From: Candidatus Saccharimonadota bacterium
GTDB taxonomy: Bacteria; Patescibacteriota; Gracilibacteria; UBA4473
Reading direction: 5' to 3'
DNA: 32,000 nucleotides
Assembly (NCBI GenBank): GCA_965228485.1
Contig: OZ245819.1
Span: forward strand, 600,001-632,000
Made by a program: the position numbers and the translations under genes. Below, one piece after another: positions 1,191 to 32,000 of this stretch. The notes beneath the pieces were generated by a model that worked only from the letters and a program-made list of their open reading frames with translations, was not told the DNA's origin and ran no database searches. Position 1 is the stretch's first letter; every line of letters begins with the position of its first letter.

Positions 1191-1342
1191 ACATTTTTAA
1201 TTTTAAATTAATAACTTTTTAAAATTAAAAATAAAAAAGTCAATTAAACCTTTTCTAAAATTTACAACAAAAAGTCCAAAAAGGATTTTAGATGAAAATC
1301 CTTTAGTGATATATACTGGGTTTAAATATAAACAAAAAACAA

Positions 1343-16502: not shown

Positions 16503-19355
16503 CTACTCCGTTTTTGGAGCCGTTTCTTCAGGCGAAACTGGAGCCAATGATTTATCTGAAGTTGCCGCTTGTGCAATAGTTGTTCCGACTGGTGCTTCTG
16601 CTGGTGCTTCAGGTTTATCGGTTAATAATTGGTCTGGGACCGTCGGATCTTTTTTAGCGGCATCTTCAATAGCGCTTAAATTTCCAATTCCCATTCGTGC
16701 TTCGATTTCAGCATCTACAAATTCTTTCTTACGACCGTATTTCATCCGAGAATATTTATGAATAATCTCCGCAATTTTCCAGTTCTTCAATGTTGGGTCG
16801 TACAACGTCTCCATAGAGAACGGCCGCGAAGTAGTATTATTAATATTTAGCTTGATGTAGGCTTTATAATTCGCAATTCCAAGAATGTCCTGCTGAGATA
16901 ATGATGGAGAATATTCTTTTTCTAAGTATTCAGCATCATCCGCCCCGACTTTAAAACTCATCATTGTTCCCACATTCCCAAATACGGCATCTCGAATTTT
17001 TGAATCTTTTTGTCCAACCGCTACTCCTCCAGCAGATTCTGATAACTGAGCGATGTACTGATGGGCCATGATAAGATTTAATCGGTACTTACGAGCCTCA
17101 GAAAGGATAGCCGCAAAAGTATCGGTCGCAAAATTCTGAAACTCATCCACATAGAGGTAAAAATCTTTCCGTTCATCCGCCGGTTGATCCACCCGACTCA
17201 TTGCCGCCTGATTGATTTTCGCCACCATAATCAACCCTAAAAGCTGGGCATTAATAGCTCCTATTCGCCCTTTCGAAAGATTGATTAAAAGTACTTTTTG
17301 ATTATCCATAGCTTCACGTACATTAAAGGCTGATTTTGTCTGTCCAATGATGTTACGCATAGTCGTGTTCGTCACGAATGGACCAAATTTAGAAGTGAAG
17401 TACGGAATCATTTCTTGTTTTTCTCGGTCTCCAGTATTCGCCATTTCATTTTCCCAGAAGGCTCTTACGACTGGATTTTTTACCTTAGAAACTTTGTAAC
17501 GCTGAAAATCATCATCAATAAACAACCGTGGAATATCAATAAGGGTCGCGCCTTCCTCTTCGTCTGACATAAGCGTCAAACAACCATTACGAAAGTAATG
17601 CTGAATACGTGGACCAAAGATTTCATTTCCGAAAAGCTTGATGAAGATTTCCATGGCATCAAGCGAAGCTCTATCTTGCTCTTCTTCGGTTTTGGCCTCA
17701 AGCACATTAAGTCCCATTGGACGATCTCGATCCCCTGGATCGAAAACAACAATATCTTTGGCTCGTTCTTTAGGTGTACAAGAAAGCACATCTTCTACAA
17801 GATCACCATGAGGATCAATCACACAGACACCCTCTCCCGCATGAACATCCTGCCAAGCCATATTCCACAAGAGCACCGATTTCCCCGAACCAGATTTCCC
17901 CACTACATAGGTATGTCTCGTACGATCGTTTCGGAGCATATGCACTAACCGTTCTTCTCCCCGATAAACATTTTTACCAAGGATAACCCCTTCTTGTGGC
18001 AGATTAATAGGGGGTGGTAGTACTTTGTAATCCATCCAACGAATGGTTGGAATACGGTTATAACGAGCATCTGGAAAATGGAAAATTGTTCCAAGCTCTT
18101 CAGAAGCCAGAATAGAATTAAATTCAAAAAGATTACTCAATCTTAATCGGTAATTGTGATGAATAATCGGACTATTAATTTTATTGATAAAAAAGATTCG
18201 TCGATTTTCAAAATAGTTTTTCCCCTTACCTTTAAAAGCATTGAAGGCAACAAAAATACCATTCAAAATTTCCTGACATTTGTCGGGACCATGAGGAGTA
18301 GAAACCATCACTCGGGTAATCGTGTCAAACCCAGATTGAAGCGCTTTCTCCCCAATAGCTTTAGCTACCTCTTCTTCAGACTGCAGCATTCGAACGTAAC
18401 TATCTCCCCCACTGGCGCCTGGAGCATTTGTTCCTCCGTCAACCGCTGGATCATATCCAGTCATCATAACTTTTGGTAGCCACCAAATAGCACTTAAAAT
18501 TGGTCCAATAATCGGAACATCTAAATGACCTTTTTTCTTTTTCCCTTTGAATAGTCGAGTTCCTTCTTTCTGAGCTTTTTTTCTCCATCTTTTTGATTTT
18601 GGATGAATCACCATTTGAACCACAGCTTTTTCAGACTTATCCAGCTTAGAAAAAGAATTGGCCACCTCATTAAGGGCATCATCTTCTAGATTTTTATAAG
18701 TCTGAATTGGATACCAAAAATCCTCTTTTGTATAAAGATAAAACCCATTCACATAAGCATTATTTGTTTTAAGATCGATACGCTTATCTTTTGGGATTTC
18801 TTCAATTTCAGCTGATTCATAAAAAGAAGTTACCAGCTTCTGAATAATTGATTTGTAATAAGGATCACAAACAATTACAAAACTCAATTCTTGTTCCTCA
18901 AATTGAAGCTCAAATGAAATCTGAGGTTTCCCCCAAATCCAACGCTTAATAAAAACATTGTAGAGATTCAAGTCACGTGTCTCATGAAGTGCTCGATAAA
19001 ACTGTTCCGCTTTTCCTATCTGTTCTTTGAAATCTTTATCGGTCCGTTTTTCATTATCTAATTTCGAATCATTCTTTGGAAGAATTACTCTCATATGAAT
19101 TAATCGCCCCTCTTCTTTTCGATCGTGGATATACCGTATAGTGAAACGGATTAACACGAAAAGTGTATAGATATCTAAAGCTAAAAACACTCCATGAGTA
19201 ATAATCTGCCACCACTCCATTTGAGCATTAATTGTCGACCAAGGATCAGCTTCCGTAAACCATGCCGTAATCAACAAAAAAGCCAAGCGCATTCGATATG
19301 CACTTCGGGCAATTATGCCAATTCTGAGCAAGATTATTTTTAGGAGTGTTCCCAT
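16503..19355 (-). CDS. Membrane-anchored VirD4/TraD/TraG-like (type IV coupling protein-like) P-loop ATPase
   Basis: Two N-terminal hydrophobic helices and a ~400-aa domain I do not recognise. Walker A VVGKSGSGKSVLL lies at nt 17877-17900. Walker B is FYLYVDEFQNF, followed by ARKYRLNLIMAHQYIAQL, as in the TraD/VirD4/FtsK-HerA clade. The C-terminal tail is disordered, acidic and Pro/Ala-rich. Confidence 0.75.
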   Translation of the reverse strand: MGTLLKIILLRIGIIARSAYRMRLAFLLITAWFTEADPWSTINAQMEWWQIITHGVFLALDIYTLFVLIRFTIRYIHDRKEEGRLIHMRVILPKNDSKLDNEKRTDKDFKEQIGKAEQFYRALHETRDLNLYNVFIKRWIWGKPQISFELQFEEQELSFVIVCDPYYKSIIQKLVTSFYESAEIEEIPKDKRIDLKTNNAYVNGFYLYTKEDFWYPIQTYKNLEDDALNEVANSFSKLDKSEKAVVQMVIHPKSKRWRKKAQKEGTRLFKGKKKKGHLDVPIIGPILSAIWWLPKVMMTGYDPAVDGGTNAPGASGGDSYVRMLQSEEEVAKAIGEKALQSGFDTITRVMVSTPHGPDKCQEILNGIFVAFNAFKGKGKNYFENRRIFFINKINSPIIHHNYRLRLSNLFEFNSILASEELGTIFHFPDARYNRIPTIRWMDYKVLPPPINLPQEGVILGKNVYRGEERLVHMLRNDRTRHTYVVGKSGSGKSVLLWNMAWQDVHAGEGVCVIDPHGDLVEDVLSCTPKERAKDIVVFDPGDRDRPMGLNVLEAKTEEEQDRASLDAMEIFIKLFGNEIFGPRIQHYFRNGCLTLMSDEEEGATLIDIPRLFIDDDFQRYKVSKVKNPVVRAFWENEMANTGDREKQEMIPYFTSKFGPFVTNTTMRNIIGQTKSAFNVREAMDNQKVLLINLSKGRIGAINAQLLGLIMVAKINQAAMSRVDQPADERKDFYLYVDEFQNFATDTFAAILSEARKYRLNLIMAHQYIAQLSESAGGVAVGQKDSKIRDAVFGNVGTMMSFKVGADDAEYLEKEYSPSLSQQDILGIANYKAYIKLNINNTTSRPFSMETLYDPTLKNWKIAEIIHKYSRMKYGRKKEFVDAEIEARMGIGNLSAIEDAAKKDPTVPDQLLTDKPEAPAEAPVGTTIAQAATSDKSLAPVSPEETAPKTE

Positions 19356-19372
19356 GTGAATAAAATCCCTTA

Positions 19373-19401
19373 ATTATAATGCATTTTAAGGCTTTTTTCA
19401 A
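19373..19401 (-). promoter_or_regulatory. Sigma-70-type promoter for the ATPase gene (TTGAAA-N17-TATAAT)
   Basis: The minus strand reads TTGAAAaaagccttaaaatgcatTATAAT. The -10 element ends 17 nt upstream of the ATG at 19355. Confidence 0.45.
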
Positions 19402-19423
19402 TGGAAAGCTCTAGACAAACAAC

Positions 19424-19458
19424 AAAAAAACCAGATTTGATACTAAACCTGGTTTTTT
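19424..19458 (-). terminator. Rho-independent terminator after the 1437-aa gene
   Basis: Minus-strand RNA has the stem CCAGGUUU, loop agtatc, stem AAAUCUGG (one G-U pair), then U7. It lies 19 nt downstream of the stop at 19477. Confidence 0.6.
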
Positions 19459-19476
19459 GTAAAAATTTGAGACTTT

Positions 19477-22400
19477 TTATCCTTGAACCTCTTCTCTCCA
19501 ATCAGTTCCAAGGAATTGCTCTAGAATTGGAGGCGTTGCCTCAAGTAGTCGAAGGTCAAAATTAACGACTAAACTTGGCTCTGGAACAGGGAATCCGTTG
19601 GCATCCACTGGCGCTACCGAAGTATCTCCAATGTATTTTCGGAAACTCAACAAGTGCGCTAGATTACCGATAAGATTTCCTGAAACATTAAGTTGTTTAT
19701 CAGAAATGTCATCATTCTTGGCCTTAATTTGTCCTCGTTCCACTAGGAATGTACCATGAATTTCTTCAACATTTTTATCAATCAATATATCTCCATCTTG
19801 TACTACAAAAGCTACAAAGTGAGGACTCGGAATATTATTGAAGTCGCTATTGATGATAAGATCACCATTTTCAACAATGAATGTTACACTTCGAGTAAGG
19901 CCTGCAATATTCACAGAATCTAAATCCAGATCTCCATTGTAGAAGTAAACTCCTGATTCATACTCATGTGTTCGGAAGTTATTTCCAAAAGCACTTTGTG
20001 TTTGAGTATTTTGATTTAGATTTTCATAGAAATCGTTATTATCAACGTTCTGAAAGTTCCCAAGCTCATCAAATTCGTCCATCGTTAGTACGTCTGGCAC
20101 AAACAAGTTGTTATCACTCATGATTTCACTAATTGTTTGTGGTTTCCCTGTTACTTTTTCGGCCTGAGAAGACTGAATTCCTACATTCCCCGCTTTGGCT
20201 CGAATAAATGGTCTGATAATTTGAACCTGAGCGCTTGAACCGAGTGAAGAGATACTTCGAACGTACTGCTCCAGAGTCGGAGGTGTACAAGCATTATCTC
20301 CAATACCAATTCGTTTAAATCCTGTGGCACTTGTAGCTCGATTTCTGTACGTGTACTCAATCACCGCAAAGGCTACATTTTTAAGTTGAGAAGTATCTTT
20401 TTCAGACGCTAGAGCTGTATTCATATCATAATGAACTTTGTATTGTGCAAACCCTGCATTGTTCAGATCGCCAATTTCAGTTGAAGTAAGCGTTCTTTCA
20501 AAGTAATCTTTATCTTCGGCACAGTTCCCTGGTTTACCACACCATCTCCAAGTGGCATTATCATCTCCATCAATAATTCCGTGTCGATTCCAGATATTCC
20601 CAGATTCCTCTGGGATCATCATGTCGTAGACTTTGATTTTCCCCGTTAGAATTTCGTAAGCCGTTTTATCAAAGTTAAGATTATCAACCGTAATTTCGTA
20701 GGTAACAATGTCTGATTTAGATACGGTGATTTTTTTCACTAGAGAGCCACTATCATTATTTTTTACCTGTTTATTAATCGTTGCTCCAACATTGAAACAC
20801 TCTGGACAATCTCCTACTGGCTCACAAGGAGTTGGCGGATGTGGAGGCTGGATAGTGCCACATTGTGCGGCAATTTCTGCTGAGGTAGGAGAAGCAAATG
20901 GATCAATAACTCCTCCAATATTAGCTCCACAGAGCTTAAGGTCTTGATTTTCTGCCCAATCCAATACACAAGATCGTTCTCGAGTATTAGCCGTATTTCG
21001 TGGTTCTGTATTTCCTACTACACAATTCCGGTATGACTGCCATAGAGGATCACTCGGATCTTCTACTGGCCGACGGTTTGTACATTGTTGTGCTCCAGTA
21101 TTTGGATGGATAGTACACGTTCCTACTCGTGGAATAGTGTCTCCACTACCCCCTCCTGTATCAATCGTTACATTACTTGGATCTTCATCATTTACTTGTG
21201 GATCTCCATTTACTGGATCTCCTGTTACTCGAGCGATATTTGTGAAAGCTGAAGTAACATTTTCTAACTCACAAACGTAAGTGAATGACTCATTTGAATC
21301 GAATATCCCATCCGCATTGCCAGTGGCTTGAATCAATGGCAATGTTTGAGCGGCTGTTCGCTCACAGTCTGGAGCGAGTAGATCCGTCACAATTACATTT
21401 GTAAGGCTTTCGGTTCCATCATTAGTAACCTTAATGGTAAAGGTGGCTGTTCCGCCTCCTACTGGCATTTCTTGGGTATCATGCCCATCACTATCAGGAG
21501 TTCCTGGAGTTGAGTCATCTTTATCAATATCAATAGAAGGTCCTGTTGGATTTCCTGGGATAACCACTTCTGTTGGATCGGTATCATTTACGATTTGATC
21601 ATCTACCACAGATTCCCCTGTAACCGTTGCTGTATTCGTATAAGAGTCTGTTACATTTGTATCTTCACAGGTATAAGTAAACGATTCTCCTGGATCGAAA
21701 ATATTATCTCGATTCCCAACCGCTTGGATCAATGGTAAAGCTTGAGCGATAGTTCGAGCACAGTTTGGTTCTCTCCCATCGTCAATTCGTACATTCTTAA
21801 GTCCTTCACTTCCCGTATTTGTTACCTGAATCGTAAAGATTGCTGTTCCTCCACGAGCGACTCGTTGAGTATCATCTCCATCTGTATCTGGATCTCCTGG
21901 AGTCGAGTCATCTTTGTCGATTTCAATAGCTGGAGCATCCTCTACCCTTACCTCTGTTGGATCTTCATCGGTAACTGTTGTACCAGAGCCAACTCCAACC
22001 CCACTTACTTGAGAATCATTATCCCCATCAACAAATGTTGTCGTTTGTACATTCTCTTTCGTACAAGTGTAAGAGAATGAATTTCCTGGAGAAAGAACAT
22101 TGTCACCATTTTCAACGGCTTGAATTAGTGGAAGTGTCTGAGCGGCTGTTCGAGCACAATCAGTAGCTTCCGCATCAGTAATAACAATATCTCGAAGTCC
22201 TTCTGTTCCGGTATTGGTTACTTTAATCGTAAAGGTCGCTGTTCCTCCTGGAACGACTACCTGTGTATCATCTCCATCATTATCGGCTGTTCCCGGAGTT
22301 GAATCATCTTTATCAATTTTGATATCTGGTCCTGCTGGTGGTCCTACAACCACTTCTGTAGGGTCAGTATCCGTTACTTTTGTTGTATCATCATACGTAG

Positions 22401-23790
22401 ATATTCCTTCTGTATAAGCTACATTTGTATAACTAGCTGTTACGTTTGTATCCTGACAGGCGTAAGTAAACGACTCTCCTGGATCGAAAATATTGTCTCG
22501 ATTTCCAATCGCTTGAATCAATGGTAGTGCTTGGGCAACTGTTCGAGCACAACTTGGTGCTAAAGTATCGTTAACCAACACATCTTTTAATCCAGTTTCT
22601 CCATCGTTAGTTACTTTGATAGTAAAGTTTGCCGTTCCTCCAACTTCAACTCGCTGAGTATCATGGCCATCATTGTCAGGCGTTCCTGGAGTTGAGTCAT
22701 CTTTATCAATTTTGATTGAAGGATTTGGTTTTCGAATATTAACGGTATCACCACAAAGGTTACGGCTATCTGGATTCTTAATATTACATCTTAATGTCGC
22801 TCCATCATTTGCCGACATTGGAATAGTAATTAGTTTATTTCCGTTAGCAGAGACTGTTTCATCAATATTAACACCTGTTCCAGATCCTCCACATACAAGT
22901 TTACTTCCTGATTCTAAATCTTGAGTTCTCCAAGTAAATCGTACTTGTTCTCCAGCAATAACTTCATCTTTATTAAATTCTGCTTCTTGACAGCTTGGCT
23001 GCGCATCAACAATTTTAAAGTACATTACTACCACTCGAGAATTCCCAGCTGAACCAGCAACATCTCCTAAATTAACCCTAGCTGTTTTCGCGCTAGGTCG
23101 ACTTGAAGAAACAGTTTGATGTGACCAGTTGGTATTCCCATTTGTCTGACAAGTTCCATAAAGACTGTGTCCTGGTGGATAATAATCTGGAAAATTTCTC
23201 TTACCAACCGTCGTTCTTTGAAACTCTAAATCAAAAGTCCCTCCCCCCTGAAGACGAAGATCTACAATATCATTAATTACCTGAGGATTAGCATTACTTG
23301 CTGCAATACTCGACACCACCTTTCTAGGATCGCTCCAGTCTACAGTTACGGTTGTATTTCGCGCATGGTTGATTCCACCACAACCCTGATTAGCATTATT
23401 ATGCACATACGTAAACACACGAATAACATCTCCTTTTCGAAGATTGGTTAATGTATGTTTATAAACCCTCGGGGCATCAGTATTTTTTGCCGCAGTAACA
23501 AAATCCCTCTCATCATCCAAATTCCCAAGCCCATTAGAAGCAATATATGCCGCTCGTTGACTATCTGAAATTGTCCAAGGCATATGTCCTCTAACCTGAG
23601 GAAGCCACGGCTGATTATGAATTAGATTAAATTGAACAGAATTCCCAATACCACTATTTACATTAATCCCATTAACTCGTTTATTAGATCGGTTATTAGG
23701 AAAAAAATCACCTGACCCAGCATACGTTGCGGTGGGCAAGAAAATAGATAGCACTAGGCTAGCGGCAACCGTTTTAAAACATCTCATCAT
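19477..23790 (-). CDS. Giant secreted surface protein with four DUF11-type (conserved repeat domain) repeats
   Basis: Signal peptide MMRCFKTVAASLVLSIFLPTATYA|GS. Four ~131-aa repeats start xIxIDKDDSTPGxxDxDGxDTQ and contain GGTAxFTIKVTNxG (the DUF11 hallmark) plus a Cys pair. A Cys-rich region follows, then a C-terminal ~180-aa domain. No LPXTG motif or TM anchor was seen. Confidence 0.8.
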   Translation of the reverse strand: MMRCFKTVAASLVLSIFLPTATYAGSGDFFPNNRSNKRVNGINVNSGIGNSVQFNLIHNQPWLPQVRGHMPWTISDSQRAAYIASNGLGNLDDERDFVTAAKNTDAPRVYKHTLTNLRKGDVIRVFTYVHNNANQGCGGINHARNTTVTVDWSDPRKVVSSIAASNANPQVINDIVDLRLQGGGTFDLEFQRTTVGKRNFPDYYPPGHSLYGTCQTNGNTNWSHQTVSSSRPSAKTARVNLGDVAGSAGNSRVVVMYFKIVDAQPSCQEAEFNKDEVIAGEQVRFTWRTQDLESGSKLVCGGSGTGVNIDETVSANGNKLITIPMSANDGATLRCNIKNPDSRNLCGDTVNIRKPNPSIKIDKDDSTPGTPDNDGHDTQRVEVGGTANFTIKVTNDGETGLKDVLVNDTLAPSCARTVAQALPLIQAIGNRDNIFDPGESFTYACQDTNVTASYTNVAYTEGISTYDDTTKVTDTDPTEVVVGPPAGPDIKIDKDDSTPGTADNDGDDTQVVVPGGTATFTIKVTNTGTEGLRDIVITDAEATDCARTAAQTLPLIQAVENGDNVLSPGNSFSYTCTKENVQTTTFVDGDNDSQVSGVGVGSGTTVTDEDPTEVRVEDAPAIEIDKDDSTPGDPDTDGDDTQRVARGGTAIFTIQVTNTGSEGLKNVRIDDGREPNCARTIAQALPLIQAVGNRDNIFDPGESFTYTCEDTNVTDSYTNTATVTGESVVDDQIVNDTDPTEVVIPGNPTGPSIDIDKDDSTPGTPDSDGHDTQEMPVGGGTATFTIKVTNDGTESLTNVIVTDLLAPDCERTAAQTLPLIQATGNADGIFDSNESFTYVCELENVTSAFTNIARVTGDPVNGDPQVNDEDPSNVTIDTGGGSGDTIPRVGTCTIHPNTGAQQCTNRRPVEDPSDPLWQSYRNCVVGNTEPRNTANTRERSCVLDWAENQDLKLCGANIGGVIDPFASPTSAEIAAQCGTIQPPHPPTPCEPVGDCPECFNVGATINKQVKNNDSGSLVKKITVSKSDIVTYEITVDNLNFDKTAYEILTGKIKVYDMMIPEESGNIWNRHGIIDGDDNATWRWCGKPGNCAEDKDYFERTLTSTEIGDLNNAGFAQYKVHYDMNTALASEKDTSQLKNVAFAVIEYTYRNRATSATGFKRIGIGDNACTPPTLEQYVRSISSLGSSAQVQIIRPFIRAKAGNVGIQSSQAEKVTGKPQTISEIMSDNNLFVPDVLTMDEFDELGNFQNVDNNDFYENLNQNTQTQSAFGNNFRTHEYESGVYFYNGDLDLDSVNIAGLTRSVTFIVENGDLIINSDFNNIPSPHFVAFVVQDGDILIDKNVEEIHGTFLVERGQIKAKNDDISDKQLNVSGNLIGNLAHLLSFRKYIGDTSVAPVDANGFPVPEPSLVVNFDLRLLEATPPILEQFLGTDWREEVQG
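21142..22719 (-). repeat. Four tandem ~393-nt coding repeats (DUF11 modules) with an A-B-A-B relationship
   Basis: Repeats start at aa 358, 489, 621 and 752. Repeats 1 and 3 share ARTxAQALPLIQAxGNRDNIFDPGESFTYxCxDTNVTxSYTN. Repeats 2 and 4 share RTAAQTLPLIQA. Confidence 0.85.
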
Positions 23791-23817
23791 AGGTGGATTA
23801 ATTTAGATTTTTGAGAT

Positions 23818-23967
23818 TTAAAGTATTTCTTGAATAGATTCATGTGGAGCAGGCTGAATATTCAGCTCTGGAGGTAAAATCACAGGTCTTGTAAAGTAAT
23901 AAATTAGACCCGCGGCAATTAATACCAATACAATGAATCCGATAAGAGCGTTCTTTTTATTTTTCAT
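23818..23967 (-). CDS. 49-aa single-pass membrane peptide upstream of the giant gene
   Basis: MKNKKNALIGFIVLVLIAAGLIYYFTRPVILPPELNIQPAPHESIQEIL*. It is too short for the ORF track. It has a basic N-terminus and one TM helix, lies 27 nt upstream of the giant gene and just downstream of a strong promoter-like site. Confidence 0.45.
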   Translation of the reverse strand: MKNKKNALIGFIVLVLIAAGLIYYFTRPVILPPELNIQPAPHESIQEIL

Positions 23968-23988
23968 GGAATTTTATTTATTCTGACT

Positions 23989-24017
23989 ATTTTACCACAG
24001 ATTCTATCACTTCGCAA
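23989..24017 (-). promoter_or_regulatory. Extended -10 promoter (TTGCGA-N17-TAAAAT with TGTGG upstream)
   Basis: The minus strand reads TTGCGAagtgatagaatcTGTGGTAAAAT. The -10 element ends 21 nt upstream of the small-ORF ATG. Confidence 0.45.
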
Positions 24018-24148: not shown

Positions 24149-27100
24149 TCAGGCGCCTGTTCCAGCTCCGTCACCACTATCCCCACTATCACCGCTATCT
24201 CCACTACCATCTCCACTAGCGGCTCCTTTATTATGGACGAGAACTCCATCAGCATAGAATGTATGATAATTCTCAATAGAGCTTAGATTGTACACCTGTA
24301 CTTCTCCAGACACTACTTCTAGACTTTCTACTTCTACCAGACTCCCATCTGATAGATGTAGTTTATCTCCAGTTTCTAGTAGTTCTGCTTCTACTTCATG
24401 TTCTGATAGAGCTTTTTCTGGTGAAATAGCCGTCCATCCAGTGTATCCACTCGCTTTAGTTGCATAGATTGGATGATTCTCTGTTACATTTAGAACTCCT
24501 CCGTTAACTACACAGTAACCTTCGGCCTTTGGAGCGTGAGTAGCTAAGACTTTAGCTTCTTTTTGTTCTCCAGATTCTTCATCATAAGCTACTACTGTAT
24601 CCCCTACCACTACATCTTCAATATTCTTTTGAGTTCCATCCGCCATTGATACTTTTGTTCCAGCTACAAAACAATTACCACTATCTCCACTATCACTATC
24701 TCCACTATCTCCACTATCACTATCTCCACTATCTCCACTATCACTATCTCCACTATCTCCACTATCACTATCTCCACTGTCACCATCTCTACCACCTCCA
24801 TCGCCACGAGGATCTGGCACGATTACAACATTTGGATCAACAACACGACCTCTTTGTTCTCCATATCGATTAATTACGGTCGTAGTACAGTATGGTCCTG
24901 GAACTCCACATGGAAGTCCTGTTCGGATAAAGTTATATCCTTCAGGAATATCTGGCATTGGTTCATCTAATTCAAGTAGTCCTAATTCATCATATTTACA
25001 TCGAATAAGTCCTTGAGTATCGATTGCTCTCATTCCTCCATAGGAATCTTGAACATAGAGCCATCGATTCATTTCTCGCTTGGCAGCGGTTTGTCCATAG
25101 TCACTTTTGATCATTTCATCAAAAGACTCAAAAGTTCTAACGGTCTTAGAACCATCCGGAGTAGTAATTGTTACCTCCCAACCACCTTTAACCGCTTGTC
25201 CTTCCACTACATTTGTTACTCGAGCTCGCTCTCCTCTCGTAGTATCAATATTGATATAAGAGAAACTTCCTCGATCCTCAATTTCTTTTTGAGCCGCTGA
25301 ACGTACAGCTTCAACTTTTTCTGGAGCTTGTCGCCCAAATTCTTGCCAGGCTTCATCCACCGTCCCAATATATCCTTGAGCCCTTCTTCTTGCCCAATCA
25401 ATTTTTAGCGTTCGAACTTCTGCATCTTTTCGAGATTGTTCTTCGGCTTCATTATAATTATCTTTGAAGTTTTGGAACCATTCTCGTGGTTCAACTGTTA
25501 CTTTTCCAGTTTCCCCATTCATCACTGGTTGGAATAGACGATCTAGTAACTGTCGACTTGGTCGTACCGTAGCTTTCCCTGAAGCCAGTAGTCCACTAAT
25601 TTTGTCTCGACTAATTTCCCCAGCTGAGGGTTCCCATACTTGTCCTACAACCCTAGTAGCTCCTCGAGTACGAGTAACTCCATCAAAAGTTGTTCCTGTA
25701 TATCGTTCTCGCCCAGTACTAATATGCTGACCACTCTCTCTTACTCGTGTAGTTTGAGAGTAGCTGTCTGTATAGTGATGAGTATAAGTATCAGTTCGTG
25801 TTTTGAAGATATGAAATCGTCCACCAAGACGATTATCAATCGTCATTAGCTCACCATCAACCTCGTAGTTTAGGTCTGGAAAACCGATAGTTGTATTGGT
25901 GTAATCTTCGATAGCACTTTTCCAGTGATCAAGATATTTTAGATCTTTACCATCATCTAAACCTCGTTCTTGAACAATCTTAACAATTTCATCGGCTTTC
26001 TCTTCGTAGGCCTGTCGCATTGATTGAACAATCTCTGGAAGTTTAGCATTGAGTTCGATGGTCGTTCCATCTTTAGAATAATGTCCTGCAAATTCTGCAA
26101 GTTTCAGAATTAGATCTGCATCAATTTTACCATCTTGAGGTGTATTGAACCCAAAGTAAGTGAGGGCACCTTCTAAATTCCCAATGGCATCAGGACTCAT
26201 CCCTACTAGACCTTTTATAACCTCCTTCAGTTCTGGCCTAGATTTTAGTAGATCAGAAAGTTCAGAATTTGGAGATTCATAGTTTTTCAGAGCTTCTGTT
26301 GATTTAGCACCAAAAACTCCATCTGGATTTGCACCAATGGCTTCTTGAATAGCTCGAACTGCTTTATTTAATGCCACCCGAGTTCCTCCGCCAATGACTC
26401 CATCAACTTCAATATCTGGATCAATAAGTTCGTTAATAGCTCGTTGCAAGGCTTCTGGATCATCTGTTTTTCCTGTTTTCACATAATCCAAAATAACTTT
26501 CCAAGAACTTGGTACTTCTTTTCCAGCTTCTAGCTCTTTGATAAGTTCTTCTGTTCGTTTATCTAGATCCGCATCTCTTTCTGGATTATCTTTATCTGGG
26601 GCTTCTGTTTCCACTGGTTTAGCAGGGGCTTCATAATTTTCACCATTTCCAACCTTAGCCTCTGGGCGAAGATGTCTGAGAGTATAAGCGTAAACTCTAA
26701 AGGCTTCTCGAGTTTTACCTCCGAAGTCTTTATCTACTGTTAAAGCTTTAATCCCTTTAAGTTCTGATCGTACTTCTGCTGGAACTTTGTACAGTTTTCC
26801 ATCCGGACCTGTAAAAGTATCTTTAACTTCCCCTGTCTCTTCTACAAAGAACATAGCATTAAAAGCTTCTTGGAAAGCTCCAATATTTTCAGCTAAGTCT
26901 TCACTTACAAAACCAAAAGGTTTTAAAGCTTCTGCTAATTTGGCTTTAGCAGCTTCTGTATTATCGTTAAGATCATTTATACGAGTTTCTCCAACTTGTA
27001 GATTGGCTTTATCACGTTGAAATAATAGGTCTCCTCCGGCTTTGGCACCTATTACTTGATCGAGTGTTAGATGACCAAATTTTCCTTCAATTAAATGAAT

Positions 27101-27484
27101 AATTAGATCATCAAGTCCAACCCCCTCTGAGTTAAGATGATTCTCAAAATCATTAAAACTACTATTAAAAAGGCCATCTGGATCTAAGACATCTTCCAAA
27201 GACTGCTTAATAGATAGTTTTCCTTCCTTGATTTCAAACATTTCATCAATTCGAGTAGATCGAATATGATCACGAGCACTATCTGGCATATCATTTCCAA
27301 ACCAATCTAATGGGTTTGAAGATTCATTATTGTCAACAAGCTCTTGTAATTTCGTAAGCTCTGCTGCCACATCGCCTTTGATAGAGTCTAGCTTGGTATG
27401 ATCAAGCTCTGGAGATTCTGGACCTCCCGCCAAGAAAATATACTTGGCCTTTAGTTCGTTGCCGGTTTTTTGGAGAAATTTCAT
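24149..27484 (-). CDS. Large acidic protein: shared N-terminal motif + peptidoglycan-binding-like module + (D/S/G) repeats + C-terminal Hint (bacterial intein-like) domain
   Basis: I place the start at MKFLQKTG (27484). The track's TTG at 27538 coincides with the -35 box, and the ATG at 27511 lies inside TATAATGG. A PG_binding_1-like segment is present: ALQRAINELIDPDIEVDGVIGGGTRVALNKAVRAIQEAIGANPDGVFGAKSTEALKNY. The Hint domain runs CFVAGTKV...TENHP...VLVHN. No signal peptide or TM helix was seen. Confidence 0.8.
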   Translation of the reverse strand: MKFLQKTGNELKAKYIFLAGGPESPELDHTKLDSIKGDVAAELTKLQELVDNNESSNPLDWFGNDMPDSARDHIRSTRIDEMFEIKEGKLSIKQSLEDVLDPDGLFNSSFNDFENHLNSEGVGLDDLIIHLIEGKFGHLTLDQVIGAKAGGDLLFQRDKANLQVGETRINDLNDNTEAAKAKLAEALKPFGFVSEDLAENIGAFQEAFNAMFFVEETGEVKDTFTGPDGKLYKVPAEVRSELKGIKALTVDKDFGGKTREAFRVYAYTLRHLRPEAKVGNGENYEAPAKPVETEAPDKDNPERDADLDKRTEELIKELEAGKEVPSSWKVILDYVKTGKTDDPEALQRAINELIDPDIEVDGVIGGGTRVALNKAVRAIQEAIGANPDGVFGAKSTEALKNYESPNSELSDLLKSRPELKEVIKGLVGMSPDAIGNLEGALTYFGFNTPQDGKIDADLILKLAEFAGHYSKDGTTIELNAKLPEIVQSMRQAYEEKADEIVKIVQERGLDDGKDLKYLDHWKSAIEDYTNTTIGFPDLNYEVDGELMTIDNRLGGRFHIFKTRTDTYTHHYTDSYSQTTRVRESGQHISTGRERYTGTTFDGVTRTRGATRVVGQVWEPSAGEISRDKISGLLASGKATVRPSRQLLDRLFQPVMNGETGKVTVEPREWFQNFKDNYNEAEEQSRKDAEVRTLKIDWARRRAQGYIGTVDEAWQEFGRQAPEKVEAVRSAAQKEIEDRGSFSYINIDTTRGERARVTNVVEGQAVKGGWEVTITTPDGSKTVRTFESFDEMIKSDYGQTAAKREMNRWLYVQDSYGGMRAIDTQGLIRCKYDELGLLELDEPMPDIPEGYNFIRTGLPCGVPGPYCTTTVINRYGEQRGRVVDPNVVIVPDPRGDGGGRDGDSGDSDSGDSGDSDSGDSGDSDSGDSGDSDSGDSGNCFVAGTKVSMADGTQKNIEDVVVGDTVVAYDEESGEQKEAKVLATHAPKAEGYCVVNGGVLNVTENHPIYATKASGYTGWTAISPEKALSEHEVEAELLETGDKLHLSDGSLVEVESLEVVSGEVQVYNLSSIENYHTFYADGVLVHNKGAASGDGSGDSGDSGDSGDGAGTGA
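24230..24673 (-). other. Hint / bacterial intein-like (BIL) domain, 148 aa
   Basis: Block A Cys1 (N|CFVAGTKVSMADG), block B TxxH (VTENHPIY), and terminal blocks YNLSSIENYHTFYADGVLVHN|K. There is no endonuclease insert. The +1 residue is Lys, and only 26 aa (a Gly/Ser/Asp tail) follow. Confidence 0.8.
24678..24787 (-). repeat. Perfect 24-nt tandem repeat (~4.5 copies) encoding (SGDSGDSD)n
   Basis: The plus strand reads ctccactatctccactatcactat, iterated without a mismatch. It is in-frame (8 codons per unit) and sits immediately upstream of the Hint Cys1. Confidence 0.9.
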
Positions 27485-27509
27485 AACATTAAAATTGAAA
27501 AATCCGACC

Positions 27510-27538
27510 ATTATACCACAGAAGGAAGAAAAAATCAA
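27510..27538 (-). promoter_or_regulatory. Extended -10 promoter of the Hint-domain gene (TTGATT-N17-TATAAT, TGTGG upstream)
   Basis: The minus strand reads TTGATTttttcttccttcTGTGGTATAATgg. The -10 element ends 25 nt upstream of the ATG at 27484. Confidence 0.5.
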
Positions 27539-27589
27539 ATGACAAATTTTATACCAAACACAAATCGGGAAAAGAGTCGTTTTTAGTCA

Positions 27590-27618
27590 TTGATTTTAGA
27601 TTAAAAATATGTTAAAAT
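27590..27618 (+). promoter_or_regulatory. Promoter of the 894-aa gene (TTGATT-N17-TAAAAT with TG at -14/-15)
   Basis: TTGATTttagattaaaaatatgtTAAAAT. The -10 element ends 25 nt upstream of the ATG at 27644. It is divergent from the previous promoter. Confidence 0.4.
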
Positions 27619-27643
27619 CCTAGGATTTTGTGTATTTATATTA

Positions 27644-30328
27644 ATGAAGTTTTGGCCTCTCAGTCACAACAACACCGATACTCGATGGATATTCAATGGT
27701 CCACCGGGAGCGGCTAGTGGACCCAGTGAAGGCATAAATCTTGAAAGACTCGAAAAAGAGGAAGCAATAAGAAATACTGAATCTGCCCTCGCAGAACTAC
27801 AGTCACGAGTAGAAACTGAAAACGGAGTGGAAAATCTGAGCTTAGATGAAAAGTTAGATATTCTTATCAGGATAGCAAGAAACGAAGCTATATATGATGA
27901 TGAGGAAGATAGCAGAGGGAGGCTAGCCCAGGCACGAGACTGGGTTGGTTCGGGACTGGAAGGGGTAAGCGATATATCCAAACATATTGGACTCGGGGGG
28001 TTTGAAGGATTTACACGTTCAGCTCAGGAAGCCACGGATCTCTCAACAGAAGCTTATGTGATTTCGATTCTAAAAGACGACGTCGTCTTAACTCGTTTTC
28101 TCTCTGAGCACCAAGAGGACTCTTTTAATCTCTTTACTGATCGAGTTGGAGATAATACCTATAGAACTAAGCTTTTTGGTAACAAAAATTTAGAAGCCAA
28201 TGCAAATTTCATGGAACTACTCTCTCCAGCTCCAGAAAATAGGTACCTAGAAATAAATGGAACTCATTTTGTTCGAACTCCTCACGGTTATGCTGCCTTT
28301 TTCCCAAAATCAGAAGTTGGAAAAAGAGCGAAGATTGAGTCTACTACCGTTTTTAAAACTTCATCATCTTTAACACCCGAGTCTCCAGAAGCAGAAAGTT
28401 TAGTAAATTTAAAAAAAAATAATCCTTTTTTTAGAAATATAGAAAGTGGGGCTTCAGTTGCTGTACTTGAACAGAGACGAAAATTCAATTTTCATACTTC
28501 TCAAACCTGGAAAAGACTAGCAGATGAACTCAAAGAGTCTTTTAAAGATAGTCCTACTTTCCCGGAAATGGCAGATACTATTCCCGAATCATTTAAAGTG
28601 TTTCTAGATGGAAATTTTTATGCTAAAAATTTAATAACAGCATCAACACAAACAACTGCAAACATCGAAGTAATAGGAATTACAGAAGCATTATTCGCAA
28701 CAGATGAACCACATATTTTTAGAGAAAAAATTACAAAAGCAATTGGACTTATTGCAAAGCACCTAAAAGAAAAAATTGACACACTGAGTAAAAAAGCAAA
28801 AGAAGAAAAAGACCCAGAAAAAAAGAAAGAGTTACAAGAACAGTCAGAGCAAATTTCTAACAATATCCCTAAAATATTTGGAACTATTCAAGAATTTATC
28901 ACCGATGAATTAGAGAACAATAGCGCAGCTATGAATGCTAATGAAAAACTATTTTCACGAGAATTCCCAGACCTACCACCAGAAAGTATTAATACATTTT
29001 TAACTGAGTTCGATACAGAAATAAAAGACCTTATGGAAAGTAAGGAACTAACAGAGGGTGAAGCCATGCATATTGCAGGAACATTATTTGGAAAAATACT
29101 GGGAAGTAATCTTGAAGGCACTTTAGAAGATTATCCACACATAAAAAACCTTGTGTTAGCACGTATCAACATCATAACGAAAGAATATGGAATTACGTCT
29201 CTCTCTAAATCTGCCGAAGTAATACAACAGGAATATGAAATAGCGAGAGACCTAAATGATCCTAGTAGTCCTGTTTCTCAAATTGCTGCAGAATTGGGAA
29301 TCGATCCAAAAACAGAACTTTCCCTAGAAGACCTTGAGGCTATTGCTGCAAAACTTAAAGAAAAATACGAAGCTGCTGAAAAAGCTAATAAAGAAGGCGT
29401 AGGGATCCCAACACCTGTAATTACAAAATATCTAAGAAGTTATGAAAACTTCTTAGGAAAAGTCGCCAGACTTCGAGCCGCTCGTAGAGAGGCTGCAGAA
29501 GCTAGAGACGAAGCGATTACAGTCGAAAGAAATACTGAAACTATAATCCCAGAATTGGAAAATATTTTTGATCCTGAAACACCAGAAGGAAAAAGATTTC
29601 ATGAAACTGTAGATATATCTGCGGAGTATATTCGTGAATATGCAGCCCAAAATAATGGAGCTATCCCACCAGACTTTACGAGTGAAAAATTTAATGAAAT
29701 AAGTACTCGATTAGAAGCCGGAGAAAGTCCTGAATCTATCCGACTATCTCTTGGACTCAAATCTCAGACATCTTCTCCAGAGTCTATTTCTGGACAATAT
29801 TTATCTCCACGGGCTATTCCTGCTGGGGCGACCAATGCAAGAACTCTAGAAAATGGAAATTTAGCCTTCGATGCGGGATCAACAACAATCGAAGTAGATA
29901 GCACCACCAATCCTCCAAGCATGTTCCCTCACGGAACAGAAGGTCTACAGCGTGAATGGATGACTATGCCAGCAACCGCTAAAAATGTACTGGCAATACA
30001 AATTGGTGGGGCGGTAATGAGTGCCAGTGTGGAAGATGGTCAAGAAGGACTAGGATTGATGTTTAGAAAAATGGGACGAGAAAAGTTCCAGATTTTACTC
30101 AGAAACCTTTCTTTCCCAAGAATGGGAAGACTGCTTCAGCCAAAAGAAGAAGAGGGGCTTCAGGCTATAAAAAACCAATTTGGAAGCATTGATATTATTT
30201 TCGAAAAACTGGGACTCCTTCGTGAAGACGGCCAAGCCGCTCCCGAAAATGTCGATGCCCGTACATCTGAACAATTTTTCAATATTCTTACCAGCGCAGC
30301 CGTTGGAAACTTCAAGTCTCTTGAGTAA
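27644..30328 (+). CDS. 894-aa acidic, helical protein of unknown function with the shared N-terminal motif
   Basis: Long uninterrupted ORF with normal coding texture. The N-terminus is MKFWPLSHNNTDTRWIFNGPPGAASGPS. It has Glu/Lys-rich coiled-coil-like stretches. No signal peptide, TM helix or recognisable domain was seen. Confidence 0.75.
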   Translation: MKFWPLSHNNTDTRWIFNGPPGAASGPSEGINLERLEKEEAIRNTESALAELQSRVETENGVENLSLDEKLDILIRIARNEAIYDDEEDSRGRLAQARDWVGSGLEGVSDISKHIGLGGFEGFTRSAQEATDLSTEAYVISILKDDVVLTRFLSEHQEDSFNLFTDRVGDNTYRTKLFGNKNLEANANFMELLSPAPENRYLEINGTHFVRTPHGYAAFFPKSEVGKRAKIESTTVFKTSSSLTPESPEAESLVNLKKNNPFFRNIESGASVAVLEQRRKFNFHTSQTWKRLADELKESFKDSPTFPEMADTIPESFKVFLDGNFYAKNLITASTQTTANIEVIGITEALFATDEPHIFREKITKAIGLIAKHLKEKIDTLSKKAKEEKDPEKKKELQEQSEQISNNIPKIFGTIQEFITDELENNSAAMNANEKLFSREFPDLPPESINTFLTEFDTEIKDLMESKELTEGEAMHIAGTLFGKILGSNLEGTLEDYPHIKNLVLARINIITKEYGITSLSKSAEVIQQEYEIARDLNDPSSPVSQIAAELGIDPKTELSLEDLEAIAAKLKEKYEAAEKANKEGVGIPTPVITKYLRSYENFLGKVARLRAARREAAEARDEAITVERNTETIIPELENIFDPETPEGKRFHETVDISAEYIREYAAQNNGAIPPDFTSEKFNEISTRLEAGESPESIRLSLGLKSQTSSPESISGQYLSPRAIPAGATNARTLENGNLAFDAGSTTIEVDSTTNPPSMFPHGTEGLQREWMTMPATAKNVLAIQIGGAVMSASVEDGQEGLGLMFRKMGREKFQILLRNLSFPRMGRLLQPKEEEGLQAIKNQFGSIDIIFEKLGLLREDGQAAPENVDARTSEQFFNILTSAAVGNFKSLE

Positions 30329-30342
30329 TAAGACAGAAGCAT

Positions 30343-30371
30343 TTCAAAAAAACATTAATCTGTGGTATAAT
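30343..30371 (+). promoter_or_regulatory. Extended -10 promoter of the third large gene (TTCAAA-N17-TATAAT, TGTGG upstream)
   Basis: TTCAAAaaaacattaatcTGTGGTATAATgg, followed by GAGGA 3 nt before the ATG at 30394. Confidence 0.45.
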
Positions 30372-30393
30372 GGAGAGATTTTTTTGAGGAACA

Positions 30394-32000
30394 ATGCAAA
30401 AGTGGTGGCAGTTTCCCAACTCTGAAATCCGATCAAAATTTTGTTTTGAAGTCGGAGGTGGCCCTGGATCTCATACAGATTCTGGGGCAGAAACTGTTAG
30501 AGCTACAAGTAATGATGCAAAAACTGAAACCACGGAGGATATCGCGGGTATATTTGACCGAATTTCTGGCGCGCTAAAACCAGAAGAAATGAGCGAAGAA
30601 ACCAAAGATAAATTGGCTGAAAATAAAACTTACTTTCAATCTAAAGAATCCGAAATACAACAGGAAATTGATAAAAACAATCAACAAATTTCGACTTATC
30701 AAGAAGAAGTAGAAACTCTTCAAACAGAAAAACAAAGTCTAGAAGAAACCAATGATGCAGATGCTGAATCAAATATCATTCTTGGACTCATGCCAAATAG
30801 TCATGAAGAGTTTATGAATTTTGTGAAAACAAATCGCCCTTCTTCTGATGAAATCCGAAACTATCTACAAAGTGATGCTCTAGAAGATGTAAGCGATGAA
30901 CAGATTCAAGCCGTACTACCACTAGCAAGCCAAATGGTTACCAAACTTAATAAGATTGATGAAATTACGAAACAGATCAAAGAAAAAAAAGCTGAAATAG
31001 CAAAATTAGAAGCTATTAACCAAAAAAAACAAGAAGAGAAAAAAGCGAATTTAGAAACCGCCACTACATCGTTTCAGAGAATTGTAGAGGCAAATATAAA
31101 ACCTGATGCTGAGGATTTAGATGGTAAAAGTGCTGAAGAATTAGAAGATCTTCAACGAAACAGAACTCAGGCTATTTGGGCAGTACATAATCGTATTGCT
31201 GAGTCTATCAGATCAGGAGAACTCCCAGAACCAACCCAGCAAACTCTCATTAGTAATTTAAAGAAACTAGAACATTCAGAAGTTACAACCCAAGAGGAGG
31301 CTCTTACCATGATTTTAGCTGGAGTTGAAGGGGTTACCGCTGAAGAATTAAAAGCCTCTCCATACTTTGCTGATATACAAACAAAGCTAAATCTCATGGG
31401 AGAACGAAGCACTGTCAGAACAGAGAGTGATACACGTCCAGAGGAAACCACTACTGACACAGAAACCGAAGATCCACTGAAAGGTCATGAAACTTTCGGC
31501 CCAGACATGGAAGGTTTTTATCAAGAAAAAGCTGTAGAAAAAACTGGCGAAATTTGGGATGCTCACAATGAAATTGCAGAAATGATACGTGAGACGGAAT
31601 TATCTCCAGAGGCTCAACAAAAAATTATTGCGAATATCAAAAAACTCGAATACTACCCAGGGGCTACAGAAGAAGAATTTATCGCTATTGTACTTGCGGG
31701 AGTCGAGGGGGTAACCGCCGAAGAATTAAAGGCTTCTCCTTATTTTGCCAGACTTCAAGAAAAATTAACGCTTATAAAACAACGAAATGATATCCAAGTC
31801 AAAATGACCGAAGTTCAAAAGGCAAAGGTCCTTAGAAATATAAGTAATCTCGTCGAGATTTTTGTTACTAACGATGAGTTCTTTGCTGGCAATATTGCTC
31901 CTGAAACAAGGGCAAAGCTTAATGCCTTAAAACAACAAATTGATAGTGGTGCAGAAATTGATTTTCAAGAAGCTTCTACACTTATTACTCAGGTTATCAA
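30394..32000 (+). CDS. Large acidic coiled-coil-like protein (more than 535 aa, 3' end outside the window) with the shared N-terminal motif and an internal 76-aa duplication
   Basis: My own translation from ATG 30394 stays open to nt 32000. It is absent from the ORF track because no stop is reached. The sequence starts MQKWWQFPNSEIRSKFCFEVGGGPGSHTD..., with Glu/Lys/Gln-rich heptad-like stretches. Confidence 0.75.
   Translation, partial: MQKWWQFPNSEIRSKFCFEVGGGPGSHTDSGAETVRATSNDAKTETTEDIAGIFDRISGALKPEEMSEETKDKLAENKTYFQSKESEIQQEIDKNNQQISTYQEEVETLQTEKQSLEETNDADAESNIILGLMPNSHEEFMNFVKTNRPSSDEIRNYLQSDALEDVSDEQIQAVLPLASQMVTKLNKIDEITKQIKEKKAEIAKLEAINQKKQEEKKANLETATTSFQRIVEANIKPDAEDLDGKSAEELEDLQRNRTQAIWAVHNRIAESIRSGELPEPTQQTLISNLKKLEHSEVTTQEEALTMILAGVEGVTAEELKASPYFADIQTKLNLMGERSTVRTESDTRPEETTTDTETEDPLKGHETFGPDMEGFYQEKAVEKTGEIWDAHNEIAEMIRETELSPEAQQKIIANIKKLEYYPGATEEEFIAIVLAGVEGVTAEELKASPYFARLQEKLTLIKQRNDIQVKMTEVQKAKVLRNISNLVEIFVTNDEFFAGNIAPETRAKLNALKQQIDSGAEIDFQEASTLITQVI
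31171..31776 (+). repeat. Two copies of a 76-aa module, 126 aa (378 nt) apart
   Basis: Copy 1 (31171-31398): AIWAVHNRIAESIRSGELPEPTQQTLISNLKKLEH...ILAGVEGVTAEELKASPYFADIQTKLNLM. Copy 2 (31549-31776): EIWDAHNEIAEMIRETELSPEAQQKIIANIKKLEY...VLAGVEGVTAEELKASPYFARLQEKLTLI. Confidence 0.85.

Follow-up and report, generated by a model that had tools for sequence, protein, structure and literature searches.

A short N-terminal peptide motif shared by large proteins of a Gracilibacteria-type bacterium: a possible recognition tag

Three adjacent genes in a 32-kb window of bacterial DNA (the whole stretch analysed, positions 600,001 to 632,000 of contig OZ245819.1; G+C about 38%) encode large proteins that begin with similar peptides, which raises the question of whether this shared N-terminus acts as a recognition or export tag. 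The proteins are P1 (1111 amino acids, aa; 24149..27484, minus strand), P2 (acidic, 894 aa; 27644..30328, plus strand) and P3 (acidic, longer than 535 aa and running off the window end; 30394..32000, plus strand), with P2 and P3 divergent from P1. The peptides matched exactly those picked out by a sequence-only reading of the window, namely MKFLQKTGNELKAKYIFLAGGPESP in P1 (27410..27484, minus strand), MKFWPLSHNNTDTRWIFNGPPGAAS in P2 (27644..27718, plus strand) and MQKWWQFPNSEIRSKFCFEVGGGPGS in P3 (30394..30471, plus strand). That reading had called the proteins giant; at 700-1400 aa across the family, large is the better word.

The similarity of the three N-termini exceeds chance. The comparison set consisted of 80 genome loci around homologues of a VirD4/TraG-like ATPase encoded in the window, with others added through contig look-ups; ATPase homologues occur at more than 500 genome loci, and motif counts cover the 86 ATPase-anchored loci that were fetched. 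The window and these 86 related loci supplied a background of 986 other open reading frame (ORF) N-termini. In anchored global alignments of the first 26 residues (BLOSUM62), the P1-P2, P1-P3 and P2-P3 pairs scored 27, 40 and 28, each higher than the best background score (19-22 among 986 other ORF N-termini), and the likeness claimed earlier is therefore real. The sole higher 'null' match for P1 was the ORF of P1 itself read from an upstream ATG. A hidden Markov model (HMM) of ten sequences gave its members 26-35 bits and the best non-member in 1.47 Mb of six-frame translation 13 bits, and a loose regular expression matched nine of the ten members and four of the 989 background N-termini. When whole classes of carriers were left out of the model, members of the P1 and P2 classes still scored above all 989 background N-termini (8-13 bits, background maximum 6-8 bits). 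Unanchored leave-class-out models run over the six-frame translations lacked power, with held-out members at 1-6 bits.

Seven further carriers were found on six other Gracilibacteria/Peribacteria-like contigs, always with the motif starting at residue 1. The motif is about 22 residues long and has the general form M-K-Φ-Φ, a polar stretch usually with Asn, [KRN]-[WFYRL]-[IVLC]-[FYW], a Pro within 2-6 residues and a linker rich in Pro, Gly, Ser and Ala. The further carrier ORFs measured 711-1395 aa. On the Altimarinota chromosome L001, the P2 orthologue (L001a) begins MKFIFWQDIKKKNTKWVYQQPLGAP and the P3 orthologue (L001b) begins MKALKSTPNLLVESKFCWNLPPPGG. On contig L081, the P2 orthologue (L081a) begins MKFSFWQELKNINTRRLYQQAPSGP, and the P3 orthologue (L081b) has the same start but carries a 1-nucleotide (nt) frameshift. 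In L047 the P1 position is taken by a protein of 963 aa that begins MKFLNKLSAVGKTNFVFLKFGPSSS, its gene lying ahead of the adhesin gene and on the same strand, and L017 encodes a 1395-aa protein that begins MKYLLQRNRISARFIYQQAEP. The remaining carriers were homologues of the P1 body, P0124 on contig L087 and the L088 protein. The motif is thus conserved in orthologues of P2 and P3 (L001a, L081a and L001b), as well as in the syntenic L047 protein. It should be noted that the L081 frameshift is an insertion inside the motif (1195-1225, minus strand; AAATTCCTGCTGG versus AAATTCTGCTGG in L001); contig coverage being 1.9x, it probably reflects an error of assembly and not a pseudogene.

The wider sample changed the description of the motif. 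An Asn at position 9 had been described as invariant; an Asn lies within residues 5-14 of all ten tags, and its position is not fixed. A Gly/Pro run with Gly-Gly near residue 20 had also been described. The Gly-Gly is not conserved, and the relatives share only a Pro 2-6 residues past the aromatic core. The 'IF..GPPG' stretch was also considered as a Walker A motif (P-loop), which was rejected, as GK[ST] is missing after it.

Start codons and promoters place the motif at the true, translated N-terminus. In five genes (P2, P3, L001a, L081a and L001b) no earlier start codon separates the ATG from the preceding in-frame stop, which in P3 is a TGA three codons upstream. The other five genes have a conserved TGnTAYAAT box 22-27 nt upstream of the ATG, and this box was recorded before the carriers in L047, L017, L087 and L001b. 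The extended -10 promoter of P1, TGTGGTATAATG (27509..27520, minus strand), has a TATAAT that ends 25 nt before the ATG, and an in-frame ATG nine codons upstream falls inside this perfect box; L047, L017 and L087 show the same architecture. The 12-mer before P3 (30361..30372, plus strand) is identical, TGTGGTATAATG, and a candidate extended -10 element of P2, TATGTTAAAAT (27608..27618, plus strand), likewise ends 25 nt before its ATG. The database places the start of P0124 (L087 1332-1410) 26 codons too far upstream, in an overlap with the preceding gene for 5-FTHF cyclo-ligase. Its true start, MKILRNQVTLNRFRLIYQSTAPSSAP, lies 25 nt past a TGGTACAATGG box, and with this promoter-supported start the motif falls at residue 1. 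Starts called automatically can conceal the motif from database searches.

The boxes of P1, P3 and a string of genes for a small membrane protein, an adhesin and the ATPase, which is preceded by a near-copy of the box (TGTGGTAAAATA, 23988-23999, minus strand), lie about 20-27 nt from the start codons, so that the 5' leaders would be very short, and most of these genes lack an obvious Shine-Dalgarno sequence. Short leaders of this kind suit an explanation in which the first codons are constrained by the mRNA or by translation initiation on Shine-Dalgarno-less transcripts, and the recurrence of ATGAAATTT (MKF) fits it as well. However, 71 of the 123 identical residues in cross-class pairs (Met and Trp excluded) used different codons at a nucleotide identity of 0.35, which shows that selection acts on the peptide, and the conserved core sits at codons 13-22, past the initiation region. 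We consider this explanation very improbable.

The motif has been kept while the protein bodies diverged beyond recognition. The remainder of the three proteins had been described as dissimilar, and this held for P1 against the other two: a profile-profile comparison (hhalign) of the P1 class with the P2/P3 class gave a single match, columns 1-22 against columns 1-22 (E = 0.074 for that one comparison). P1 and its syntenic counterpart in L047 also aligned only over residues 1-29, at 41% identity. The description did not hold between P2 and P3. L001a and L001b have a common C-terminal domain of ~130 aa (43% identity, E = 2e-27), which makes P2 and P3 paralogues, and the C-terminal ~190 aa of P2 in the window are a divergent copy of the same domain. 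This domain (~130-190 aa; window 29741-30325, plus strand; L001 1151-1650 and 3352-3850, minus strand) carries the signature GSAQFT.KF..GFMGIG...R....MR.IGG..W.I.L and had no Pfam, NCBIfam or PHROG match. Its AlphaFold2 model, built from three sequences, reached a predicted local distance difference test (pLDDT) score of 34.

Thus the motif is real, lies at the true N-terminus, is under protein-level selection and occurs in at least two families otherwise without detectable similarity. The paralogy of P2 and P3 supports the main rival to a tag, in which the motif would be the best-preserved remnant of one divergent paralogous family and would have an internal role such as self-association, folding nucleation or intracellular anchoring. 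All carriers are listed as large, acidic and without Pfam matches, and the restriction of the motif to a narrow clade is what a young family would show. However, the P1 class resembles the P2/P3 class only in columns 1-22, the P1 and L047 proteins retain only their first 29 aa in common, and the constant placing of the motif at residue 1, ahead of a flexible linker of Pro, Gly and Ser, is typical of a tag rather than of a domain core. AlphaFold2 also packed the motif against nothing, albeit at low confidence. A family remnant appears somewhat unlikely.

The carrier proteins evolve extremely fast. P2 orthologues were about 23% identical in genomes whose ATPases were 75-77% identical. P2 had no Pfam, NCBIfam or PHROG match and is homologous to the mid-region of L001a (1e-7); a search of 5.8e9 protein clusters found only P2 itself, a look-up in the contig index gave no record of P2, and a P2/P3 profile search found only two of its own input sequences. 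P3 had no match to a known family either (Pfam, NCBIfam, PHROG), and tblastn linked it to the P3-like genes of L081 and L001 (1e-37 and 2e-6). Within P3, residues ~248-486 (31135-31850, plus strand) comprise two copies of a ~100-aa module, 47% identical overall. The two copies agree fully in a 19-residue core, LAGVEGVTAEELKASPYFA, whose coding sequences of 57 nt differ by 12 synonymous changes. This points to strong purifying selection on the core peptide, and the core is recognizable in the L081 P3-like protein.

Where P1 acts is suggested by its domains. The order in P1 is the tag, an acidic region, PG_binding_1 repeats, a conserved core, (SGD)n repeats, a bacterial intein-like (BIL)/Hint domain and a 26-aa SGD tail, with no hydrophobic segment. 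The PG_binding_1 repeats were placed at about residues 274-400 by Pfam and matched residues 318-425 in the HMMER search, and the core ends in a three-Cys motif, QGLIRC...GYNF.R.GLPCG..G..C, also noted as QGLIRC...GYNFIRTGLPCG. An exhaustive HMMER search with P1 residues 1-935 found two body homologues, P0124 (E = 5e-28) and P0125 (E = 3e-27). The three Cys and PG_binding_1 are features of the P1 class, and the BIL/Hint domain was found in P1 of the window. Conserved Cys and domains of the PG-binding and BIL kinds are typical of extracytoplasmic proteins, and the peptidoglycan-binding and BIL domains suggest that P1 works outside the cell. A Sec signal in place of the tag is missing from all three P1-body homologues. 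Extracytoplasmic-type domains on proteins without a Sec signal form the main indirect argument that the tag may substitute for one.

The BIL/Hint domain (P1 residues 929-1085; PF07591 2.9e-9, PF01079 2e-7, PDB 2lwy 1e-8) begins CFVAGTKV and ends LVHN, with the N-terminal Cys and C-terminal His-Asn expected of such domains. Within the C-terminal part of P1 (residues ~895-1111; 24149-24700, minus strand), (SGD)n repeats lie before and after it, seen as a 24-nt tandem array at 24678-24785. No toxin domain follows it, only the 26-residue tail, and the residue after His-Asn is Lys. Downstream there is a single ORF, for a 49-aa transmembrane (TM) protein whose place ahead of the adhesin is conserved, and no immunity gene came to light; the combination of pretoxin HINT, toxin and immunity gene was thus not found. 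The domain has the look of a module for autoprocessing or ligation, and less that of a splicing intein or of a device for pretoxin release. PHROG matches were limited to the PG-binding and Hint parts of P1, and a phage origin was unsupported.

Among the signal families tested, none fits the motif. The sequence-only reading had excluded Sec, Tat and prepilin signals, and our measurements agree. A Sec signal has a basic n-region and then, within the first ~30 residues, a hydrophobic stretch of 7-15 residues; the highest 19-residue Kyte-Doolittle mean over the first 50 aa was at most 0.62 in seven proteins and at most 0.24 in P1, P2 and P3 of the window, while the neighbouring adhesin and several other ORFs of the window do show obvious signals. 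In the ten N-termini, the Arg-Arg pair of the Tat motif S/T-R-R-x-F-L-K occurred only in L081a and a hydrophobic region in none (seven scanned, three by reading). Direct reading revealed neither a lipobox of the form L-[AS]-[GA]-C nor a type IV prepilin leader, G|[FM]-T-L-x-E before a hydrophobic helix; the sole N-terminal Cys, residue 17 of the P3 class, lies outside any lipobox. The N-terminal regions gave no Pfam, NCBIfam or PHROG match to polymorphic-toxin trafficking domains (LXG, TPS, PAAR, RHS).

The earlier analogy with double-glycine leaders cleaved by C39-peptidase ABC exporters is contradicted by the orthologue sequences. Like those leaders, the peptide is N-terminal, non-hydrophobic and about 20-25 residues long, and two of the three window copies, P1 and P3, have Gly-Gly at residues 20-22. 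However, Gly-Gly is missing from P2, L001a, L081a, L017, L047, P0124 and L088, whose tags read QQPLGAP, QQAPSGP, QQAEP, QSTAP, KFGPSS, NGPPG and QEAP among the variants at this site, and the LSxxELxxIxGG pattern is not conserved. The proposed company of a C39 ABC transporter was likewise missing from the window, where no ABC or C39 gene was found among the 21 largest ORFs, all those of at least 150 aa included. The cargo of 700-1400 aa is also 10-50 times the size of the usual substrates, which are small peptides. We give this mechanism hardly any weight.

Other short or N-terminal signals offer partial likenesses. Polymorphic toxins and effectors (LXG proteins of type VIIb secretion, MIX, FIX and PAAR proteins of type VI secretion, and TPS proteins of two-partner secretion) also combine a conserved N-terminus with fast-diverging bodies, and P1 bears a pretoxin-HINT-type (BIL) domain. 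However, their modules are folded domains of 100-300 aa and not a linear motif of ~22 residues, no type V, VI or VII secretion genes were seen here, and no toxin domain follows the Hint domain. The signals of extracellular contractile injection cargo and of type III substrates are likewise short, non-hydrophobic, apparently disordered N-termini on unrelated cargo. They have little or no sequence consensus, in contrast to the motif, and no such genes were seen here. The motif is best classed with the general kind of short N-terminal recognition peptides on secreted or effector proteins, and would be categorically new only if a dedicated machine were found. It was undescribed in the literature searched, in which DUF8128, a domain of the ATPase, was likewise unmentioned.

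We tentatively favour, at somewhat short of an even chance, a role for the motif as a shared recognition element for a Sec-independent route of export or display. The first ~22 residues would form a lineage-specific tag made of two aromatic/hydrophobic patches and a polar, Asn-containing spacer, ending in a flexible linker rich in Pro, Gly and Ser. Its carriers are a few fast-evolving acidic proteins of 700-1400 aa in one narrow Gracilibacteria/Peribacteria-like clade. The tag would present these otherwise unrelated proteins to one common partner that works without Sec and most plausibly serves export or cell-surface display. Of the targeting signal proposed earlier, this retains a real, N-terminal motif under protein-level selection that is kept as the bodies diverge; recognition by a double-glycine exporter or by the neighbouring ATPase is not supported.

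Several observations weigh against such a tag. The common binding partner and the export outcome are both inferred, and no candidate machine that co-varies with the motif was found in the loci fetched. Proteins that leave the cell through lysis or holins can have PG-binding domains as well. Since P2 and P3 are paralogues, part of the N-terminal similarity comes from plain common descent. When left out of the model, the P3 class ranked only in the top 4-5% (rank 40-50 of about 990), so that its link rests mainly on the pairwise similarity to P1 and P2 in the window, plus the paralogy with P2. The weakest member, L088, fell to a background-level score when left out, and the carriers known so far number only about ten, on seven contigs. 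AlphaFold2 gave no structural support, modelling the first 30 residues as low-confidence coil (pLDDT ~53). Over the first 50 aa it gave coil and then a helix from residue 32 (pLDDT 56). Such a coil would agree with a linear motif that becomes structured once bound, without being evidence for it, and a beta-hairpin guessed from the residue pattern was unsupported by this model.

The ATPase of the neighbourhood had been proposed as the reader of the motif. It is a membrane-anchored, VirD4/TraG-like coupling protein of 950 aa (16503..19355, minus strand; DUF8128, TrwB_AAD_bind and T4SS-DNA_transf), and it is 52-77% identical to proteins from metagenome-assembled genomes of Candidatus Gracilibacteria, Peregrinibacteria, Peribacteria and 'Altimarinota' at more than 500 loci, which places the window organism in that group of Patescibacteria. 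Recognition of the motif as a secretion signal by this enzyme would agree with its membership of the FtsK/HerA/VirD4 translocase superfamily and with its position 5-11 kb from the motif genes in the window, L001, L047 and L081. VirD4-like ATPases of Patescibacteria have been described as lacking an assigned role, and most of their genes lie away from virB4 and may be co-opted for other roles (PMC12102498). However, the ATPase is far more widespread than the motif, which occurred in only 4 of the 86 fetched loci, those of the closest relatives (L001, L017, L047 and L081); the more distant loci have neighbours with Sec signals and no motif. Four housekeeping genes separate the motif gene from the ATPase in L017, and the motif genes on the L087 and L088/L089 contigs have no ATPase within reach. 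In addition, known substrates of VirD4 coupling proteins carry C-terminal or internal signals (charged tails, BID, XVIPCD, TSA/TSB) and not N-terminal ones, and no VirB4 or channel genes were found in the window. We regard this ATPase as a quite unlikely reader. Motif genes also lie at different loci across genomes, as in L017 and in L087, where the neighbouring genes encode a folate enzyme on one side and malic enzyme on the other; a portable tag would be expected to behave in this way.

On the minus strand, P1 is followed by the 49-aa single-pass membrane protein (23818..23967), just upstream of the adhesin, then by the adhesin and the ATPase. The small protein has counterparts in L081 (4339-4500) and L082 (42-242) and lipoprotein-like counterparts in L002 (1972-2250) and L088 (4701-4940). 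A domain scan identified the adhesin (19477..23790) as a fibrillar protein of 1437 aa with CLIPPER (DUF11/DUF7507) repeats and a normal Sec signal. The string of small TM protein or lipoprotein (49-92 aa), adhesin and ATPase occurs in the window (16503-23967, minus strand), L081, L082 and L002. In L088/L089 the small protein and adhesin are present without the ATPase after them, and L001 and L047 have the adhesin immediately before the ATPase. Among 59 informative loci, about 10, all from closer relatives, have a large protein with a Sec signal immediately upstream of the ATPase. This arrangement hints at a functional tie between the 'orphan' coupling-protein ATPase and adhesin biogenesis.

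The adhesin itself offers another possible partner. The CLIPPER domain has been described and forms Lys-Asn/Asp isopeptide bonds (PMC12617251), and the motif could be a docking peptide that adds a beta-strand to the CLIPPER adhesin or to another envelope protein, possibly locked by an isopeptide bond through its Asn, and serves as a display handle after export. P1-class genes lie directly upstream of the small TM/lipoprotein and CLIPPER adhesin genes in the window and L088/L089, the adhesin gene directly follows the P1-class gene in L047, and the P2-class gene divergently adjoins the adhesin gene in L001 and L081. The presence of an Asn within residues 5-14 of all ten tags is also consistent with docking, and donor-strand peptides (chaperone-usher extensions) and SpyTag-like tags share the alternating aromatic/aliphatic N-terminus and flexible linker, here with an adjoining gene for an isopeptide-domain adhesin. 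However, this support is purely circumstantial and the Asn position varies; in L017 and L087 there is no adhesin gene near the motif gene. Donor-strand and SpyTag-like peptides act after Sec export, whereas the tag carriers lack a Sec signal and their export would still need explanation, and there is no sign of a groove or cross-link. Docking to the adhesin is distinctly improbable.

The window also contains housekeeping genes, including those for adenylate kinase, methionine aminopeptidase, an IF-2B-family protein and a phosphoribosyltransferase-family protein, together with several genes for large envelope-related proteins. Near the ATPase lies a gene (14691-15821, plus strand) for a secreted Cys-rich protein of ~375 aa with internal repeats (CGIQMGIKC, CGIKLRLHC) and no Pfam match, which is conserved near the ATPase of a relative (L081 12954-14078, minus strand). 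The window organism uses the standard genetic code. TAA or TAG ends 17 of 19 ORFs and no in-frame TGA breaks were seen, and an alternative code was rejected; P1 ends at TGA, with a TAG one codon further on. The P1-class homologue in L088 (1731-4655) and L089 (JGI BBAY66/67 contigs) spans many in-frame TGA codons, so that this relative, unlike the window organism, recodes TGA (Gracilibacteria-type code). Its database translation, P0125, begins 12 codons too late, and upstream of that point the ORF reaches back to MFTLLRNFRAMFMLTVANYQEAP, a weaker form of the motif.

The motif family is extremely rare in public data, and two metagenome scans with the C-terminal motif of the P1 class gave no matches. 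Only a few rare genomes have yielded the motif so far, so that its wider importance may be slight. Little is known of the means by which the ultra-small, host-dependent Patescibacteria bring large proteins to the cell surface or to the host. The motif might be the address label of a new Sec-independent export or display route in Gracilibacteria-type Patescibacteria that deploys fast-evolving, wall-binding, host-interacting proteins, perhaps through the small-TM/CLIPPER/DUF8128 cluster, a full scenario that we consider unlikely. If it is true, the tag marks the cargo of the route, so that phylogenetic profiling or interaction prediction could find the machine, and the tag could be used as a search key for the host-interaction proteins of the lineage.

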